The notes below the pieces were generated by a model. The model was not told the DNA's origin. It searched no databases and was given only the letters and a program-made list of their open reading frames with translations. The position numbers and the translations under genes were made by a program. Positions 3,604 to 10,784 of a stretch of 13,030 nt of DNA are shown here, piece after piece. The DNA is from Corallococcus llansteffanensis (lineage in GTDB: Bacteria > Myxococcota > Myxococcia > Myxococcales > Myxococcaceae): NCBI RefSeq assembly GCF_003612055.1, contig NZ_RAWB01000277.1, forward strand, positions 1-13,030, written 5' to 3'. Every line of letters starts with the position of its first letter. The first letter of the stretch is position 1.

Positions 3604-5247
3604 CTACCCGTTGCGGCGCACCATCGCGACGTCGTAGCGGCGGTCCGTCACGTAGCCCTCGGCGGCCTTGCCGGGGCGGGTCATCGCGCCCGTCTTCTCA
3701 TCCACGTAGAAGCGGTTGTTGGGGTTGGTGTCCTTGCCCTTGCTCGCGTTGGTCGTCCCCGGGTCGTGGAACGTGTAGTAGGTGCGGCCCTTGTCGTCGA
3801 CGCCGCGGCCCGTGATGGTCACGAAGTGGTCCGTGAGCCCGTCCGCGTTGTACTTCGCGTCCTTGTGGCTGACGCCCACCACCACCGGCTTGCCGGCGTC
3901 CAGCTGCTGGTCGATGTACTTGCGACCCTCGGCGGCCTTCTTGGAGTTCACCGAGAGCTGGCCGGTGCTGTTCTCGCTGGTGCCCACCTGGATGCGGCTG
4001 TCCGGGCCCGTCACGTTCGCGCCCACCTTGCCGGCCATCGCCTTCGCGGCGTCGAAGCACGCGGTCTTGCTGGGGGTGAAGCCGTGGCCGCCCTCGAACT
4101 GGCTGTAGTACGGCACCTTCACGTGCACCGCGGGGCCCGACTTGGACGGCGCCACCGTCTGCGTGTCGTTGAGGTCCACTTCCGTGGTGGGCTTCTGCGA
4201 GTTGGCGCCCGTCGTGTTGCTCGTGGCCGGCTTCGTGTTGCTCGTGGCCGGCTTCGTGCCGCCCGTCGTGTTGCTCGTGGCCGGCTTCGTGTCTGCCGTC
4301 GTGGTACCCGGGGTCGTGGTGCCGCCCGCCTTCTCCTTCTTGAGCAGCGCGAGCGCGTCCTTCACCTCGGACTTGAAGCGGTTGGCCACGCCCTCCTGCA
4401 CGCTCTTGGAGTTGCTGGAGAAGTGCACCAGCGTGCCGCTGGAGTTGGTGCGGCCGCGCTCGGCGTAGATGTCCTTGATGAGCTGCTCGTCGCTCACCTT
4501 GGAGGGGTCGCGGCCGGCCAGCGCCTTCTTGAAGATGTCATCCGCCGCGCCCGGCCCGTGCTGCACGGACGTGGACCAGGCCACGTCGCGCAGCGCCGCG
4601 GACCGCGTGTCCAGGTCGATGCCCGTCGCCTTCTTGATGTTGGCGGCGCCCACGTCGTAGTGCGTGGCCTTGATGTAGTCGTGCTGCGCCTTGTCGAAGC
4701 CCTTGGGGTCCTTCGCCGCGAGCTGCTTCCACGCGTTGGAGAACGCCTCCGAGCCCGGCTTGCTGCCCGACAGCGCCGCGTGGAACTCCGGGTTGCTCTT
4801 CTTCAGCGAGTTCACGAACGACTGCGCGGACCCGTTCGCCGACGCGAACTGGTAGGAGCCGTACGACACGCCGCCGTGGTCGCCCTTGCCCGTGGACACC
4901 GTGCCGGGGCCACGCGCCTCGTACTTGCGGCTCAGCCCGCCCAGCTCGCCGCCACCCGCCGGAGCCGTCGTCTGCTTCGTGGTGTCCGTCGCCTTCGTCC
5001 CGCCCGTGTTGGACGTCGCCGGCTTGGTGGTGTTGGTGGCCGGCTTCGTGCTCGTGCCACGCGGGGGCTTCGTGTCGAAGCCGTCCGGGATGCGCAGCGA
5101 CTGGCCCGCGCGGATGCGGTCCGGGTCCTTGATGTTGTTGGCCTTGGCCAGCGCCGCCACCGTCGTGTCGTTGCGCTTCGCGATCGCGGAGAGGGTGTCG
5201 CCGGAACGGACGCGGAGGCTGGAGACGGTCATCGAAGGCACCTTCAT
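3604..5247 (-). CDS. Multidomain putative peptidoglycan hydrolase: N-terminal LysM domain, Thr-rich linkers, a central lysozyme-like (GH108-like?) domain, and a C-terminal papain-fold Cys peptidase (Peptidase_C39_2 / YvpB-like). No signal peptide
   Basis: LysM: 'SLRVRSGDTLSAIAKRNDTTVAALAKANNIKDPDRIRAGQSLRIP'. Central domain: 'GDHGGVSYGSYQF…FDKAQHDYIKATHYD', resembling the D-x-GG-x-T-x-YG muramidase motif. C-terminal 'VPYYSQ…KTACFDAA…DHFVTITG' carries a catalytic Cys/His pair. An alternative start at the in-frame ATG 5232 (Met6) has an AAGGTG SD-like sequence 7 nt upstream. The antisense ORF 3766..5295 is shadow. Confidence 0.85.
   Translation of the reverse strand: MKVPSMTVSSLRVRSGDTLSAIAKRNDTTVAALAKANNIKDPDRIRAGQSLRIPDGFDTKPPRGTSTKPATNTTKPATSNTGGTKATDTTKQTTAPAGGGELGGLSRKYEARGPGTVSTGKGDHGGVSYGSYQFASANGSAQSFVNSLKKSNPEFHAALSGSKPGSEAFSNAWKQLAAKDPKGFDKAQHDYIKATHYDVGAANIKKATGIDLDTRSAALRDVAWSTSVQHGPGAADDIFKKALAGRDPSKVSDEQLIKDIYAERGRTNSSGTLVHFSSNSKSVQEGVANRFKSEVKDALALLKKEKAGGTTTPGTTTADTKPATSNTTGGTKPATSNTKPATSNTTGANSQKPTTEVDLNDTQTVAPSKSGPAVHVKVPYYSQFEGGHGFTPSKTACFDAAKAMAGKVGANVTGPDSRIQVGTSENSTGQLSVNSKKAAEGRKYIDQQLDAGKPVVVGVSHKDAKYNADGLTDHFVTITGRGVDDKGRTYYTFHDPGTTNASKGKDTNPNNRFYVDEKTGAMTRPGKAAEGYVTDRRYDVAMVRRNG
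4213..4290 (-). repeat. In-frame tandem 21-nt repeat (three copies of CGTGTTGCTCGTGGCCGGCTT at 4213, 4234 and 4267) encoding KPATSNT linker repeats on the minus strand. A second Thr/Pro-rich linker region lies at about 4960-5060
   Basis: Perfect 21-mer copies read directly from the sequence. Translation of the minus strand gives TKPATSNTKPATSNT. Confidence 0.65.
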
Positions 5248-5424: not shown

Positions 5425-6456
5425 ATGTCCAGGATCCAACCGGATTTCAAAATTTTGCCATTGCTGTTCGCCCTTGGCCTCACGGGCGCGGTCCCGAATG
5501 CCTCGGCTCAGGGGCCTGGAGGACTCACGGGCGTCTATTCCAAGGATGGCGGGGCGCTGGCCATCGTCGAGGGGAGCAACGAGACGCTGATCCACTACTC
5601 GGCCGGCTTTCCGCAGGGCGACAGCGTGGGCACGTGCGACTGCGCGCTGGTCGTTCAACGCAAGACGTCAACGCGCTGGACGCTGAACGTGGCCGGGGAG
5701 AAGGAGCCCTGGACGCTGCGCGTCGAACCCAAGCAGCTCGTCCTGGAGACGAAGGCGCCCACCTGCTGCGGCGCGGGCTACCCGGGCAAGGACACCTTCA
5801 CGCGGGGCACGCCCCAGCCGCTGACCGTCTGCAAGGTGAAGGCATCCAAGGCGGGCTTCTTCGCGTCGGATGAAGCCAATACGCCGCGCAAGACGTTCGT
5901 GGTGTCTGGCGACGCGGTGGAGGCCTACCTGGACCCCGTGGAGCCGGACCTCATCCCCGCGCGCTTCCAGGGGCCCCAGAAGGCCACGGCGGGGCTGCTC
6001 AAGCGCGCGGACCTGGACTGCGAGGCGGCCAAGGCCCCCACGGCGAGCAAGGCGCCCGTGGCGGCCGACAAGCTCCAGCCCTTCGCGGGCACATGGGTGG
6101 AATTGACGCGCAAGGGCAAGGGCTTCGTCATCCTCAAGCCCTGCTCCGCCAAGAACCGCAGCTTCACCGTCAAGCCCGCGACGGGCGAGGTGGAGGTGCA
6201 GCTGGGACAGGAGGCGACGACACTGAAGGCGACGTCGCTGGAGCCCGGCAAGGGCGCCGGGGCCTGGGTGCTGGGGCTCACGTCCACGGAGGGCAAGCCG
6301 GAGGCGCTCCAGTGGAAGACGGCCGACGCGGCGAAGGGCACCGTGTCGGTGACGAGCCCGGACCTCTTCTCCCAGAGCCATGACTACGTGCGTCAGGAGA
6401 AGCAGTCCGCGTTCCCGGTGAAGCAGGAGACCGGCTGCGACGAGTACGAGCAGTAG
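5425..6456 (+). CDS. Secreted hypothetical protein (343 aa) with signal peptide
   Basis: ATG at 5425 with AGGAGG 9 nt upstream. N-terminus 'MSRIQPDFKILPLLFALGLTGAVPNASAQG' is a signal peptide. GC3-rich coding frame. The antisense ORFs 5668..6381 and 5925..6341 are shadows. Confidence 0.75.
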   Translation: MSRIQPDFKILPLLFALGLTGAVPNASAQGPGGLTGVYSKDGGALAIVEGSNETLIHYSAGFPQGDSVGTCDCALVVQRKTSTRWTLNVAGEKEPWTLRVEPKQLVLETKAPTCCGAGYPGKDTFTRGTPQPLTVCKVKASKAGFFASDEANTPRKTFVVSGDAVEAYLDPVEPDLIPARFQGPQKATAGLLKRADLDCEAAKAPTASKAPVAADKLQPFAGTWVELTRKGKGFVILKPCSAKNRSFTVKPATGEVEVQLGQEATTLKATSLEPGKGAGAWVLGLTSTEGKPEALQWKTADAAKGTVSVTSPDLFSQSHDYVRQEKQSAFPVKQETGCDEYEQ

Positions 6457-6460
6457 CGCG

Positions 6461-7372
6461 TCACGGGTCCGGGCGCTCCGCCCCCGGGTTCAGCCGGGGC
6501 GCGCCTCCCGGGCCCAGCAGGCCCTGCATGGCGTCGAAGAGGTTGAGGTTGGAGCCGCTGGGGAGGAAGACGACCTTGTCCAGGCCTCCCACGACGGCGG
6601 CCTGGGCCTGGGCCGCGACGGCCTTCACGAAGTTCTCCCCGCCCCCCAGCGCCTCCACGCGCTGGCGGAACTGCGAGGCCTCCACCTCGGCGAGCCGGGA
6701 CTGGCGCTCCACCTCCAGGTCGTTCAGGCGCTGCTGCCGCTCCAGGGCCATCTGGGTCGTCAGGCGCTCGCGCTCCAGCTCCGCCTCGGAGCGGATGCGG
6801 GAGGCGCGGGCGTCGGACTCGGCGCGGGCCAGGGCCTCCTCGCTCTCCACGCGGGCCTTCTCCAGCGACACGACGGTGACGGACTCGTCGGGCACGTAGC
6901 GACCGGGCCCGCGCACCAGCCACTCGTCGCCGGCCTCGCGGCGGCGGGGCGCGTCCGGGGCGCGTGCGTCCGTGAAGGCGGTGAGCGCGCGCAGGCGCAG
7001 CGCTTCCGACACGCCCAGCACGTACTCCGGGACGATGTCGCCCTCCAGCTCCTCGCCCGGATACAGCGGGAACACCTTGGGGCCGACGCGGACCTCGCGG
7101 TCCCCCACCGCCAGCCGGGCCTGGCCGAAGTCGTCCAGCACCACCTGGCCGTCCACGCGCACCACGGGGTTGCGCACCACGCACCAGTTGCCGGCGCCCA
7201 CCTCCACCATCCGCTCCTTGGCGACGAGCGTGAGGTGCGCCTCCAGGGTCAACACCCGGGGCCCCACCTCCATCAGCACCACCCCCCGGTTGGCGTCCTC
7301 GATGTATGCGTATTCGCGATTCTTCAGGGAGATGCGCTGGATGGCTTCGGTGCTGGGGAGGGCGGACGGCAC
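6461..7372 (-). CDS. Major vault protein (MVP)-like protein, 303 aa: MVP repeats 1 to ~3 fused through a short coiled coil to an MVP cap-helix/cap-ring-like C-terminus; repeats 4-9 and the shoulder domain are absent
   Basis: GTG start at 7372 (first in-frame start; no SD). The N-terminus aligns with human MVP repeats 1-3 and the C-terminus with the MVP cap-helix end (details in findings). The other-frame ORF 6393..7379 is Gly/Pro/Arg-rich shadow. GC about 75 %. Confidence 0.8.
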   Translation of the reverse strand: MPSALPSTEAIQRISLKNREYAYIEDANRGVVLMEVGPRVLTLEAHLTLVAKERMVEVGAGNWCVVRNPVVRVDGQVVLDDFGQARLAVGDREVRVGPKVFPLYPGEELEGDIVPEYVLGVSEALRLRALTAFTDARAPDAPRRREAGDEWLVRGPGRYVPDESVTVVSLEKARVESEEALARAESDARASRIRSEAELERERLTTQMALERQQRLNDLEVERQSRLAEVEASQFRQRVEALGGGENFVKAVAAQAQAAVVGGLDKVVFLPSGSNLNLFDAMQGLLGPGGAPRLNPGAERPDP

Positions 7373-7467
7373 GGGGCACCTGCTCGGGGCGGAGGGTTCA
7401 CCCGCGAGTCATTGCCAGCCGCGTGCCGCGCCCTGCCCGTCCTGAAACGATCCTGCGATGTTCCGAC

Positions 7468-7519
7468 CTGGAACAGCCGCCCGCTCCATTCCGGAGCGGG
7501 CGGCGGTCCAGACTGGCGC
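7468..7519. repeat. 52-nt imperfect hairpin repeat, copy A (CTGGAACAGCCGCCCGCTCCATTCCGGAGCGGGCGGCGGTCCAGACTGGCGC), immediately 3' of the minus-strand gene ending at 7525; terminator-like (11-bp stem, 5-nt loop), no U-tract
   Basis: 50/52 identical to copy B at 8824-8875. Core CCGCCCGCTCC/GGAGCGGGCGG stem plus outer CTGGA/TCCAG arms, read from the sequence. Confidence 0.6.
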
Positions 7520-7524
7520 GCCTT

Positions 7525-8700
7525 TCAGTCCTTGTGGATCCACACGAGCATGCGCGTCGCGTCATAGAGCACGAACCTGGCGTCCCGAAGGAAGGAATTG
7601 CCAACCTGCGCCGCCGGGGTGGTCCAGGTAGCAATCCCCCCACACTTGAGGCTTGCCGGCGTCGGTGTCTTGATGAACAGGTGGGCATCTCCATAGGAGC
7701 GCACGGGCTGATCGTCGGTGCCCATGAACTCCAGCCGCGCGCCTTCGGGAAGGAGAAACTCCTGGACCGTGTCGTTGGCCCCTCCGCACGCACTCAGCTG
7801 GCTGGGCGGCGTCCCGACCGGAACGGTTTTGACTCCCGCCTTGGTCAACATCTCAAGCAACGCCTTGTTGCCATAGAGGCTGTGCCTGACGATTGAATCA
7901 TCAAGCCCTGAGTCCAGCTGGCCTATGAAACGCGCCCCGCCCATCCGCAATGGAACGGTAGGCACGTTCGGCACAAGCTCACTGGCACCCGCGCCTGAAC
8001 GGAGCCGGGTCATGTTGAACAACCCCGAATCGTTGATCGCGAAGTAGCCGCGGGTTGTGAGCGGCCGCAACCCGGCACTCTTGAGCTGGTCGTCATCGCA
8101 CAAGGATCCAGAGCGATTCCGGAAGACAAGCGAGCGCTCATAGTCGAGCGCGAAGGTATTGAGCACCAGGAAGTCAGCCCCCACGATACCCGCCTGTCGC
8201 CCGACTGTCGGGTCTACTTTGTTGCCCGAGTGGTCAGCTTGTGCAAGGCACACGTTTCCCCATCCACCAAAGAAATCAAAGTTCCCAAAGCGGCAAAACG
8301 TGCCCGCGACTCCTGACTGGCAGAGGGTTTGATCTCGAGCGCAGTTATCAACAATCACCTCCGGCTCGTTCTGTCCGAACGCTTGGTGCGCCCGGTCAAT
8401 CGTGCTGTACGTCGAACCGAAGTCCAGCAGGAACCTACCCGTGAGCGGAGCGCCCGAGGGTGCCGACAACTTGACCTCAACAAATGGCCATTGGCCAGAC
8501 ACCCAGAGAGGTCTGCGCTCCCCCAGACACGCATCCAAGCTGGAGAACGGCCGACTGCTGGCGACTTCTGGCTGAGCAGGGGCGGCTTGTTCAGGTTTGT
8601 GGGCACAGGCAGGCAACAGCCAAAGCGCCAGCACTGCCGCGCCCAGGCGCCAAAGCAGCCCAGCGTCGAGACTGGCATACCCCTGTTTTTCGGCAGACAT
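7525..8700 (-). CDS. Lipoprotein (391 aa). Two D-x-G motifs ('LLDFGSTYS' and 'IGQLDSGLDDS') about 170 residues apart suggest a pepsin-like (A1) aspartic peptidase fold; function tentative
   Basis: ATG at 8700. 'LALWLLPAC' lipobox. Clearly lower GC (about 55-63 % per 60-nt line) than the neighbouring genes (about 70-78 %), with a less GC-biased third position. The spacing of the two Asp motifs resembles pepsin D32/D215. Confidence 0.7.
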   Translation of the reverse strand: MSAEKQGYASLDAGLLWRLGAAVLALWLLPACAHKPEQAAPAQPEVASSRPFSSLDACLGERRPLWVSGQWPFVEVKLSAPSGAPLTGRFLLDFGSTYSTIDRAHQAFGQNEPEVIVDNCARDQTLCQSGVAGTFCRFGNFDFFGGWGNVCLAQADHSGNKVDPTVGRQAGIVGADFLVLNTFALDYERSLVFRNRSGSLCDDDQLKSAGLRPLTTRGYFAINDSGLFNMTRLRSGAGASELVPNVPTVPLRMGGARFIGQLDSGLDDSIVRHSLYGNKALLEMLTKAGVKTVPVGTPPSQLSACGGANDTVQEFLLPEGARLEFMGTDDQPVRSYGDAHLFIKTPTPASLKCGGIATWTTPAAQVGNSFLRDARFVLYDATRMLVWIHKD

Positions 8701-8823
8701 GTACAGTCATCCCCCAGATGGTGATTGCGGCCAACACCCTAACACGAACACCGCGGCGGGGACGCTTGGTGCCCTCCCCGGTGAAGTGCAGTTCCTGGAA
8801 GCGGGCCCAGGAAGCCAGGGATG

Positions 8824-8875
8824 CTGGAACAGCCGCCCGCTCCATTCCGGCACGGGCGGCGGTCCAGACTGGCGC
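8824..8875. repeat. 52-nt hairpin repeat, copy B (…CATTCCGGCACGGGCGG…), immediately 3' of the GDSL lipase gene ending at 8886 and about 120 nt 5' of the low-GC lipoprotein gene
   Basis: Direct repeat of copy A in the same orientation. The two mismatches sit in the loop-proximal stem, leaving a 7-bp core stem plus outer arms. Confidence 0.6.
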
Positions 8876-8885
8876 ACCGGGGTGA

Positions 8886-9779
8886 CTACTGAGCGCTCCA
8901 CGCCTCCACGGTCCACTCGTCGGCGGAGAGGCCGGCGCTGAAGCCGAGGGCGTCGGAGACGAGGTCATGGCCGTAGTCCGCGAAGATGCGGTGGCTGTAG
9001 CTCGTGGGGTGGATCTCATCCCAGAACAGGTACGTGTCCGGGTTGACAGCCTTGCCCTTGCTGGTGCCGGTGACGTTCGTCAGGCCGTACGCGGACGGCG
9101 ACGCGATGATGGCGTTGAACTGGTTGTAGGCGTTCATCCCGATGAAGGTGACGGACGGGAAGTCCTGGCGCAGCTTCGTCAGCGATTGCGCCCACAGGGT
9201 GTTGAACTGGCTGGTGGGAGGAGCGAGCACGGTGGTGCCCAGGCCGCCCGGGACGGACAGCGCCGCCGGCGTCTTGTTCAAGGGCGGCATGTTCACCCAC
9301 AGGATGCGCTTCGCGCCCGCCGCGACGAGCTTGCGGATCTGCCCATTGATGTTGGAGACGGCCGTCGTCGCCGCGGCCTTGATGCCAGCCGAGTCGAACG
9401 GGTTCGCCTGGGCCTTGTAGTTGATGTCATTGCCCCCGCCCCAGAGGACATACAGCGCCGTGGAGGACGCCGTCGGGTGGGCCGCCAGGTAGCTGTTCAC
9501 CTGGCTCGTCATCCCGCTGGTGACGGCGCCGCCCCGGGCATAGTTCGTGCCGCCGCTGTCGGACGCCGTCAGGGGCAGGCCCAGCTGCGTAGCGAGCTGC
9601 TTCACCCAGGTGCCGGCAATCTGGCTGGAGGGATTCGTCGTCGGACCGCTGGTGGCGATGCCGTTGTTGCCGTTGTCACTCAGGCTGTCGCCAAACACGA
9701 CGATGCTGCTCTGCGCGCCAGCGTGGAACGGGAGGAGGACGGCCAAGATGGCCGCGAGCAACAGGAAGGGATGCTTCAT
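8886..9779 (-). CDS. Secreted GDSL/SGNH-family lipase/esterase (copy 1)
   Basis: ATG at 9779 (GAGGAG RBS upstream). An in-frame GTG at 9794 is the track start, but the ATG matches the paralog alignment. 'MKHPFLLLAAILAVLLPFHAGAQS' is a signal peptide. SGNH blocks: 'VVFGDSLSDNGN', 'YARGGA', 'WGGGNDI', 'DEIHPT'. The start ATG overlaps the upstream gene's stop TGA as ATGA. Confidence 0.85.
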   Translation of the reverse strand: MKHPFLLLAAILAVLLPFHAGAQSSIVVFGDSLSDNGNNGIATSGPTTNPSSQIAGTWVKQLATQLGLPLTASDSGGTNYARGGAVTSGMTSQVNSYLAAHPTASSTALYVLWGGGNDINYKAQANPFDSAGIKAAATTAVSNINGQIRKLVAAGAKRILWVNMPPLNKTPAALSVPGGLGTTVLAPPTSQFNTLWAQSLTKLRQDFPSVTFIGMNAYNQFNAIIASPSAYGLTNVTGTSKGKAVNPDTYLFWDEIHPTSYSHRIFADYGHDLVSDALGFSAGLSADEWTVEAWSAQ

Positions 9780-10672
9780 GGCTGCGCGCTCCACTCCTCA
9801 ACGGTCCACTCGTCGGCGGTGAAGCCGGCGCTGAAACCGAAGGCATCGGAGACGAGGTCGTACGCGTAGTTCGCGAAGATGCGGTGGCTGTAGCTCGTCG
9901 GGTGGATTTCATCCCAGAACAGGTACTTGTCCGGGTTGACCGCCTTGCCCTTGCAGGTGCCGGTGACGTTCGTCAGCCCATACGCGGACGGGGCCGCGAT
10001 GATGGCGTTGAACTTGTTGTAGGCGTTCATCCCGATGAACGTGACGGACGGGAACTCGCCGCGCAGCTTCGTCAGGGACTGGGACCAGAGCGTGTTGAAC
10101 TGGGAGCTGGGCGGCGAAAGCACGCTGCTGCCCAGGCCGAACGGGATGGACAGCGCCGCGGGCGTCTTGTGGAGCGGCGGCATGTTCACCCACAGGACGC
10201 GCTTCGCGCCCGCGGCGACGAGCTTGCGGATCTGCCCTTCGATGTTGGAGACGGCCTTGGTCGCCACGGCCTTGATGCCAGCCGAATCGAACGGGTTGTC
10301 CATCGCCTTGTGATGGATGTCGTTGCCGCCGCCCCAGAGGACATACAGCGCCGTGGACGACGCCGTCGGGTGGGCGGTGAGGTAGGCGTTGACCTGGTTC
10401 GTCATGTCGGCCGTGACCGAGCCGCCCTGCGCGTAGTTCGTGCCTCCCTCGTCAGAGGCCACGAGCGGCAGGTCCAGCTGGTCCGCGAGCTGTTTCACCC
10501 AGGGACCGGAGATCTGGCTGGAGGGATTCGTCGTCGGACCGCTCGTCGCGGTGCTGTACTTGCCGTTGTCACTCAGGCTGTCGCCAAACGCGACGATACT
10601 GCTCTGCGCGCCAGCGTGGAACGGGAGGAGGACCGCCAGGGCGGCCGCGAACGACAGGAAGGGATGTTTCAA
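9776..10672 (-). CDS. Secreted GDSL/SGNH-family lipase/esterase (copy 2, tandem paralog). Start uncertain: TTG at 10672 (aligned with the copy 1 start) or GTG at 10720
   Basis: Protein about 80 % identical to copy 1, with the same SGNH blocks ('VAFGDSLSDNGK', 'WGGGNDI', 'DEIHPT'). 'LKHPFLSFAAALAVLLPFHAGAQS' aligns with the copy 1 signal peptide. GGAG lies 8 nt upstream of the TTG. No in-frame ATG near the N-terminus. Confidence 0.8.
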   Translation of the reverse strand: MKHPFLSFAAALAVLLPFHAGAQSSIVAFGDSLSDNGKYSTATSGPTTNPSSQISGPWVKQLADQLDLPLVASDEGGTNYAQGGSVTADMTNQVNAYLTAHPTASSTALYVLWGGGNDIHHKAMDNPFDSAGIKAVATKAVSNIEGQIRKLVAAGAKRVLWVNMPPLHKTPAALSIPFGLGSSVLSPPSSQFNTLWSQSLTKLRGEFPSVTFIGMNAYNKFNAIIAAPSAYGLTNVTGTCKGKAVNPDKYLFWDEIHPTSYSHRIFANYAYDLVSDAFGFSAGFTADEWTVEEWSAQP

Positions 10673-10784
10673 GGAGGGCTCCGAGAGGGGGGAACACAGG
10701 CGTCTGCCGCACTGTGTCACCGATCTCGGAGCTTTTCCAGGTTTCTCTACGCTTCCATGTTTTATTCCGGATGTTTCAGCGGGC
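10673..10784 (-). promoter_or_regulatory. Putative promoter/leader of the tandem GDSL operon (AT-richer 'ttccatgttttattccggatgtttcagc') and 3' region of the upstream minus-strand gene
   Basis: Local AT enrichment between the stop at 10785 and the GDSL start. Inference only. Confidence 0.25.

Follow-up and report, generated by a model that had tools for sequence, protein, structure and literature searches.

This report concerns a pair of directly repeated 55-nt hairpins, and the single gene lying between them, in a 13,030-bp stretch of DNA from Corallococcus llansteffanensis (assembly GCF_003612055.1, contig NZ_RAWB01000277.1). The stretch, hereafter referred to as the window, represents one whole contig, and the source genome was covered only by that contig. 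As shown by alignment with eight relatives, the two elements are the junction copies of one conserved, single-copy intergenic hairpin located between a GDSL lipase gene and a vault-protein-like gene, and the 1.3-kb segment separating them is compositionally foreign DNA that entered at the hairpin in the C. llansteffanensis lineage. Insertion accompanied by duplication of the target is very probable. A hairpin now stands on both sides of the insert, and the inserted (cargo) gene and both of its neighbors each keep an intact 3' hairpin. The features central to the argument are listed below.

7468 to 7522, minus strand: hairpin copy A, joined without a break to the left (vault-gene) flank, with AG at repeat positions 28-29
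8824 to 8878, minus strand: hairpin copy B, joined without a break to the right (GDSL lipase) flank, with CA at repeat positions 28-29
7523 to 8823, minus strand: inserted segment of 1,301 bp, or 1,356 bp counting one repeat copy
7525 to 8700, minus strand: cargo gene, 391 amino acid residues, encoding a probable lipoprotein with a predicted pepsin-like aspartic protease fold
8701 to 8823, minus strand: cargo upstream region of 123 nt, which came in with the cargo gene
8886 to 9794, minus strand: GDSL/SGNH lipase gene 1, the conserved upstream neighbor, with a single hairpin after its 3' end in the relatives
6461 to 7372, minus strand: truncated major-vault-protein-like gene, the conserved downstream neighbor, the upstream intergenic region of which runs into copy A

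Results

Empty sites in related genomes

Species-representative genomes were scanned with the hairpin core, and 103 loci were recovered, nearly all of which were unrelated GC hairpins of other phyla. Five were Corallococcus-type loci with one match each, namely those of Corallococcus sp. CA053C (L037), C. praedator (L044), C. terminator (L046), C. sicarius (L089), and a Myxococcaceae metagenome-assembled genome or MAG (L017). When the window was compared with these five loci by blastn, both the flank up to positions 7520-7522 and the flank from position 8824 were present, overlapping on one hairpin. The overlap in CA053C amounts to 55 nt. Three further empty sites were located through contigs carrying lipase homologs: Logan assembly SRR19369617 (L105, at 94% identity), C. 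sp. BB11-1 (L106), and C. sp. ZKHCc1 1396 (L108, with L109 and L110 as additional assemblies). All eight relatives lack the segment, and each carries a single copy of the hairpin. The first-pass annotation had offered three readings of the repeat pair, one of which, that a foreign gene was inserted into a hairpin already in place and the target was duplicated, is supported by these eight empty sites. Indeed, the repeats at the ends of the insert equal one copy of the target at the empty site, as do attL and attR.

The alignment across the junctions defines the ends of the insert. Copy A runs on into the left flank of the relatives, and copy B runs on into their right flank, where CCGGGGTGACTAC is shared without change as far as the stop of the lipase gene. 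Inward of both copies, the sequences have no counterpart in the relatives. Among the genomes examined, none other than the window carries anything between two hairpin copies. The loci of C. carmarthensis (L107) and C. exiguus (L111) are without the hairpin and display other genes after the lipase. No second hairpin-flanked insertion was found in C. carmarthensis, where only GCCAGTCTGG remains after the GDSL stop.

At the ZKHCc1 1396-type locus, two independent short-read assemblies end ∼85-95 nt past the lipase stop, at position 3554 in L109 and 3538 in L110, which is ∼30 nt beyond the hairpin. A very stable GC hairpin may break coverage or assembly at such a point. The possibility that the hairpin is a general hotspot for breakpoints was considered and rejected, since in L105 and L089 the intergenic sequence adjacent to the hairpin survives the vault-gene deletions, the ends of which lie ∼25-100 nt away.

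The repeat pair

A direct pair of 52 nt, identical at 50 positions, had been reported earlier. The pair is real, and a repeat search of the window extends it by 3 nt to 55 nt, of which 52 are identical (95%). The three mismatches between copy A and copy B are AG/CA at repeat positions 28-29 and G/A at position 53. Each copy has an outer CTGGA/TCCAG stem and a 12-bp core stem enclosing a 5-nt loop. Folded as minus-strand RNA, copy A has a free energy of -39.8 kcal/mol (z -3.8) and copy B one of -32.2 kcal/mol (z -1.5), the stem of copy B being weaker because of the CA variant. These values bear out the earlier description of the elements as imperfect hairpins, and the placement of both just 3' to a minus-strand gene likewise holds, with copy A starting 2 nt past the stop of the cargo open reading frame (ORF) and copy B starting 7 nt past the stop of the GDSL1 ORF. 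The core of the stem is unchanged across the nine aligned sequences. A scan of the window against Rfam matched no family.

Another of the three readings was that the hairpins belong to a dispersed, terminator-like family resembling the repetitive extragenic palindromes (REPs) and bacterial interspersed mosaic elements (BIMEs), with two members happening to follow adjacent genes. Each copy does follow a gene end and folds strongly, and both are stable imperfect palindromes able to form a stem-loop, as in REPs and BIMEs; in addition, the source genome was examined over this contig only. In CA053C, C. praedator, C. terminator, and C. sicarius, however, there is one core match per genome, always at this locus, and the metagenome and viral collections contain no matches. 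Within the window, a 38-nt degenerate core pattern finds only copies A and B at three or fewer mismatches, and it has no matches across 200 dinucleotide-preserving shuffles of the window. Nor is there a third, degenerate copy inside the insert, where the best local alignments score 21-24 against a mean of 20 and a maximum of 30 for shuffles. A literature search for REP elements in Myxococcus returned nothing relevant. Finally, the structure of the empty sites shows that the second copy arose with the insertion. Membership in such a dispersed family is therefore unsupported, and we consider it extremely unlikely.

The pattern scan also caught a hairpin pair in an unrelated organism. In a Candidatus Borkfalkia faecigallinarum MAG (L002), two 39-nt copies at positions 5598-5636 and 6557-6595, 92% identical and 959 bp apart, form a perfect GCCGCCCGCTCC/GGAGCGGGCGGC hairpin. 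They lie near other intergenic repeats.

Direction of the event and composition of the insert

Over the 2.7-kb right flank, the window is 94.8% identical to CA053C, 92.2% identical to C. sicarius, and 85-86% identical to the clade formed by C. praedator, C. terminator, and the MAG; CA053C and C. sicarius are 93.2% identical to one another over the same region. Since the window is nested among genomes with empty sites, a single gain accounts for the pattern more parsimoniously than three or more losses. The GC content of the segment from 7523 to 8823 is 0.614 as compared to 0.687 outside of it, and the GC content at third codon positions (GC3) of the cargo ORF is 0.71 as opposed to 0.81-0.98 in nine further ORFs of the window. 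The earlier statement that a lower-GC gene lies between the copies is confirmed by these values, as is the presence there of exactly one long, coherent ORF (7525-8700).

Direct repeats of 55 bp can mediate a precise deletion that leaves one copy behind, and an ancestral gene might in principle have been lost repeatedly in this manner. Three or more independent events on the locus tree would be needed, however, and both the foreign GC3 and the lack of any Corallococcus homolog would be left unexplained. An assembly artefact was also weighed. The contig names of the relatives are in the style of SPAdes, for which 55 is one of the default k-mer sizes. Yet the copies differ at three positions and have distinct flanks, and a de Bruijn-graph join would not be expected to duplicate and diversify a 55-mer. 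Even when repeated loss and artefact are taken together, such explanations are highly improbable.

Differences between the two copies

Alignment with the hairpins of the relatives reveals one private change in each copy. Repeat positions 28-29 are CG in all relatives except C. praedator, where they are GG, as compared to AG in copy A and CA in copy B. Position 53 is a G in copy A and in L105, and an A in copy B, CA053C, and C. sicarius. The private change in copy A, a C-to-A substitution at window position 7495 (repeat position 28), converts the T.C mismatch found in all relatives into a T-A pair, such that the 12-bp core stem is now perfect. This is the pattern expected of a quasipalindrome template-switch mutation or of selection that strengthens the hairpin following the new gene. 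Note that the hairpins of L105 and CA053C, when counted on the alignment, differ at ∼4 of the same 55 positions. The two copies are no more divergent than the orthologous hairpins of equally close genomes, and thus their divergence neither dates the event nor separates the possible mechanisms.

One such mechanism is template switching, which palindromes are known to promote in quasipalindrome mutagenesis. A replication fork stalled at the hairpin would have allowed the nascent strand to copy ∼1.3 kb of foreign DNA and to return upstream of the hairpin, which would then have been copied twice. Neither a recombinase nor a donor hairpin would be required, and the substitution that perfects the palindrome in copy A is a signature of such switching. 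The same lone substitution could equally be an ordinary mutation, however, the microhomology visible at the junctions is only 1-2 nt, and two precise switches would have been necessary. We regard this route as improbable.

The cargo gene and its product

The cargo ORF is full length relative to its homologs, including the natural C-terminus, and its predicted signal peptide ends in a lipobox cysteine (LLPAC) that is conserved in the family. The protein is probably a lipoprotein, as was first proposed, given this signal peptide and the cysteine conserved across the family. In the public annotation by the Prokaryotic Genome Annotation Pipeline (PGAP), entry D7V93_24285 comprises only the C-terminal 219 residues starting from an internal GTG. 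The full-length homologs and the conserved lipoprotein signal argue instead for the 391-residue ORF with its start at position 8700. An exact-protein look-up of the cargo and GDSL1 ORFs returned no record, the public calls using other starts. Within the upstream region, a GGGGGA Shine-Dalgarno-like motif precedes the ATG, and there is a small TTCCTGG/CCAGGAA inverted repeat. A promoter scan gave no sigma-70-like site for the cargo gene; the promoter is presumed to lie between positions 8701 and 8823.

Searches against Pfam, NCBIfam, and PHROG gave no family match for the cargo protein. Only 18 homologs are present in a collection of 5.8 billion protein clusters, the nearest being 42% identical, and none of the 18 is from another Corallococcus. 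The sole exact match is D7V93_24285, on this contig only. The named homologs derive from uncultured Myxococcota-type bins, and the best of the 135 metagenomic relatives is 41% identical.

An AlphaFold model of the protein, built on 16 sequences, has a mean predicted local distance difference test (pLDDT) score of 78. The best Foldseek matches in the PDB are yeast proteinase A and BACE1, with E values of ∼1e-7, probabilities of 1.0, and template modeling (TM) scores of only ∼0.4. The sequence profile displays a weak match of each half to retropepsins. Asp 263 (QLDSGLDD) is invariant and occurs in a D-[ST]-G motif, which is DSG in the window, whereas Asp 93 (LLDFGS) is nearly invariant and occurs in an atypical D-F/Y-G/A motif. 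On the basis of predicted fold and sequence, we read the cargo protein as a divergent, bilobal pepsin-like aspartic protease. With D-F-G in place of D-T/S-G as its first motif, the protein is of uncertain activity as a protease.

The remaining reading of the three held that the hairpins are the recombination sites of a cassette system. In such a non-integron system, a gene and its hairpin would constitute the cassette and would be moved by a trans-acting recombinase that recognizes the folded hairpin. The layout is suitably compact, with the ORF stop lying 2 nt from an imperfect hairpin of ∼55 nt, a unit length of 1,356 bp, and a hairpin of host type joined to a foreign ORF; moreover, species differ in the region downstream of the GDSL genes. 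That other variation breaks elsewhere, however, with the vault deletions ending ∼25-100 nt from the hairpin. A regular-expression scan of positions 7440-7550 and 8796-8906 on both strands revealed no attC core box (RYYYAAC or GTTRRRY), and thus there is none within 30 nt of either copy, as had been stated at the outset. The locus holds one cassette rather than an array, no integrase was found, and each of four sister genomes has one hairpin copy. Furthermore, 48 of the 49 metagenomic cargo loci with sufficient flank are without flanking repeats, the longest exact match between their flanks being 13 nt or less, and the closest homolog (P0002, locus L104) has no similar hairpin downstream. A cassette system of this type is thus unsupported and very unlikely.

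The exception among the 49 loci is L171, in which the cargo homolog is flanked by an unrelated repeat of ∼70 nt (core ACAGGGGTCGGGACATTTCATATTTCATTT) with three copies upstream (2457-2743) and one copy downstream (3934-4003). The repeat looks like an intergenic element that the organism carries in multiple copies.

Mechanism of insertion

The favored route is a Campbell-type single reciprocal crossover between the chromosomal hairpin and a matching 55-bp copy on an incoming circular DNA of ∼1,356 bp or larger. The reaction could have been catalyzed by a recombinase supplied in trans or by RecA. The repeats left behind would resemble attL and attR, and what is now seen would be an islet without an integrase, akin to a decayed cis-mobilizable element. 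Occasional loss of the cargo through recombination between the repeats would be expected.

Direct repeats of tens of base pairs that equal one target copy are the classical product of a Campbell-type crossover. The natural stop of the cargo gene, as judged by the alignment of its C-terminus with the ends of its homologs, is positioned 2 nt from the repeat, suggesting that the gene and the hairpin were a pre-existing unit; for a randomly broken fragment this arrangement would be a coincidence. The extent of the duplicated block also favors a crossover. It begins 7 nt beyond the stop codon of the GDSL gene and reaches the far base of the stem, and every gene keeps a whole hairpin. Genomic islands that target the 3' ends of tRNA genes follow the same logic. 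In addition, two of the three differences between the repeats are located in the right-hand part of copy A, as would follow had this part been supplied by an incoming copy of slightly different sequence. Elements lacking an integrase but still bearing attL and attR have been documented as cis-mobilizable elements, or CIMEs (PMC5704250).

Several observations weigh against the crossover. When phage and plasmid collections were searched by blastn with the whole repeat-insert-repeat sequence, no match and no donor were found, and a hairpin scan of metagenome and viral collections was likewise negative. No tRNA was found at the locus in the window, no recombinase genes are present in the syntenic regions of the relatives, and neither a second hairpin copy nor a larger element occurs at the site in the relatives examined. 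A circle bearing both the hairpin and a foreign gene would require the prior joining of a Corallococcus-specific hairpin to that gene, a step that is unexplained. Any single position for the crossover requires at least one later point mutation in order to account for the three differences. Finally, there is but a single event, the mobility of the islet is only putative, and the single-copy count of the hairpin comes from the sister genomes, the source genome being covered by this contig only.

The main rival of the crossover is the capture of a fragment at a staggered break. Here, a hairpin extruded as a cruciform or stalling replication would have been nicked on opposite strands 55 nt apart, a linear foreign fragment would have been joined to the ends, and fill-in of the overhangs would have duplicated the 55 bp. 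A donor hairpin is unnecessary in this scheme, and indeed everything between the copies is compositionally foreign and no hairpin-bearing donor is present in the collections searched. There is also no recombinase nearby: none of the ORFs tested in the window belongs to a recombinase, transposase, or phage family. Copies that were identical at birth would be compatible with the three differences. A 55-nt stagger, however, is far above the target duplications produced by transposases or casposases, which are 2-15 bp in length, and there are no terminal inverted repeats, the ends of the insert matching at 14 of 40 positions in register. That the foreign fragment ended 2 nt past a natural stop would be a matter of chance. 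Capture of foreign genes by end-joining is, to our knowledge, rarely documented in bacteria. Such a capture seems rather unlikely, if less so than template switching.

The crossover itself we propose tentatively, as a possibility somewhat short of an even chance. The explanation as a whole, that is, insertion at the hairpin together with the crossover route, is the best available, and we hold it with a confidence only slightly better than even.

Neighboring genes

The order of genes on the minus strand is as follows: an RdgC-like gene, a gene of no assigned family (229 residues in the relatives), two tandem GDSL/SGNH lipase genes, copy B, the 391-residue cargo ORF, copy A, the truncated major-vault-protein-like gene, and, further on, a gene encoding a protein with LysM and VgrG3-like C-terminal domains. 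The last of these (ORF 3604-5247, minus strand) contains 21-nt and 12-nt tandem repeats at 4192-4313 and 5005-5051, which would encode a repetitive linker.

The tandem lipase paralogs, at 8886-9794 and 9776-10720, overlap by 19 nt. They include a repeat (D1, 8889-9188 versus 9782-10081, spacing 893) that is 90% identical over 300 nt. There is one lipase gene in L105, L106, and L108 and there are two in the window, L037, L044, L046, L089, L017, and L107. A tandem duplication of the lipase gene plus hairpin, followed by replacement of the second lipase, was considered as an origin of the repeat pair and rejected, as it needs two precise events and there is no hairpin between the existing tandem lipases. 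In C. carmarthensis, an extra segment of ∼2 kb (L107 3965-6001) carrying a PLA2G12-like phospholipase gene is located between the 229-residue gene and the first lipase. The other relatives lack it, and it represents another strain-specific gain at the locus; no flanking repeat was found.

The vault gene is decaying independently within the clade. The homolog is 760 residues long in C. sp. BB11-1 and ZKHCc1 1396, where it displays Vault, Vault_2, Vault_3, and MVP_shoulder domains. In the window, an internal loss of ∼1.3 kb with a junction at about 6849-6866 has left a remnant of 303 residues. The 5' half has been lost in C. sicarius (L089 1500-2220) and nearly all of the gene in the Logan assembly (L105 5780-5900).

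Discussion

The structure described here most closely resembles elements bounded by attL and attR, including CIMEs (PMC5704250). As in those elements, a foreign segment lies between direct repeats copied from one chromosomal target, and the duplicated block restores an intact functional unit beside the upstream gene; as in CIMEs, there are no recombination genes inside. The differences are that the segment is only 1.3 kb in length with one gene, that the target is an intergenic hairpin rather than a tRNA or protein gene, and that no related integrase-bearing element was found at the site or in the phage, plasmid, viral, and genome collections. By analogy, the structure appears to work like an att-flanked genomic islet, known here from sequence and without assignment to a family.

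Integron cassettes share with it the arrangement of one ORF with an imperfect hairpin, attC-like in length, almost immediately behind it, and the joining of a host-type hairpin to a foreign ORF also has its parallel there. In contrast to integrons, the locus has neither R''/R' core boxes nor an integron integrase, an attI site, or an array, the relatives carry the hairpin in a single copy, and the insert brings 123 nt of its own upstream sequence. The bracketing of an insert by a direct duplication of the target recalls the products of transposons, casposons, and spacer integration into CRISPR loci. In CRISPR adaptation, moreover, the repeat that serves as target and is duplicated is partly palindromic, and it is attacked at both of its borders. 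The 55-bp duplication contrasts with the 2-15 bp typical of transposons and casposons, the terminal inverted repeats of transposons and of miniature inverted-repeat transposable elements (MITEs) are lacking, there is no transposase or Cas1 gene at the locus, and the insert is a complete gene. REP and BIME palindromes are known insertion targets of insertion sequence (IS) elements (PMC1525189). The two situations are similar in that an extragenic, GC-rich palindrome downstream of a gene is the point of insertion. REPs, however, are multi-copy and are hit by a specific, transposase-carrying IS, whereas the palindrome here is single-copy and the insert is not an IS.

There is a slight chance, one we put well below that of a staggered break, that the hairpin is recognized by an insertion system of myxobacteria that is not an integron and has yet to be described. 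In that case, a trans-acting recombinase or a Cas1/casposase-like integrase would recognize the folded or cruciform palindrome and attack both of its borders. Single foreign genes would be inserted with duplication of the whole palindrome, and the newcomer would be insulated between two terminator-like hairpins.

With respect to the role of the hairpin at gene ends, its conservation in eight genomes, the invariant core of its stem, its single copy, and its staying with the 3' end of the lipase gene fit a 3'-end element of the lipase transcript. Indeed, it is retained beside the lipase even where the vault gene has been deleted. Neither the alignment nor a scan of the window revealed a T run after the stem, and hence a U tract in the transcript, in either copy or in any relative, and a terminator scan of the window did not call the hairpin. 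Terminators without U tracts are common in high-GC bacteria. A function as a putative terminator is plausible from the sequence and in line with the high-GC host.

Taken by itself, the locus represents an insertion of one gene, with no recombinase and with a conserved hairpin duplicated over an unusual length, and as one fairly ordinary event of gene gain it is of moderate interest. It nevertheless provides a clean and polarized case, with eight empty sites, exact junctions, and a foreign cargo, of a predatory myxobacterium gaining a single gene for a predicted secreted enzyme. The new gene was placed in a locus of lipases and a LysM/VgrG3-like protein, designations that are Pfam family names only. 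If the hairpin is a terminator, the insertion should be near neutral for the transcription of the neighboring genes. If more insertions of this kind exist, with long hairpins duplicated and no mobile-element genes, they would point to a hairpin-directed route of gene gain for which current island and transposon finders do not look.

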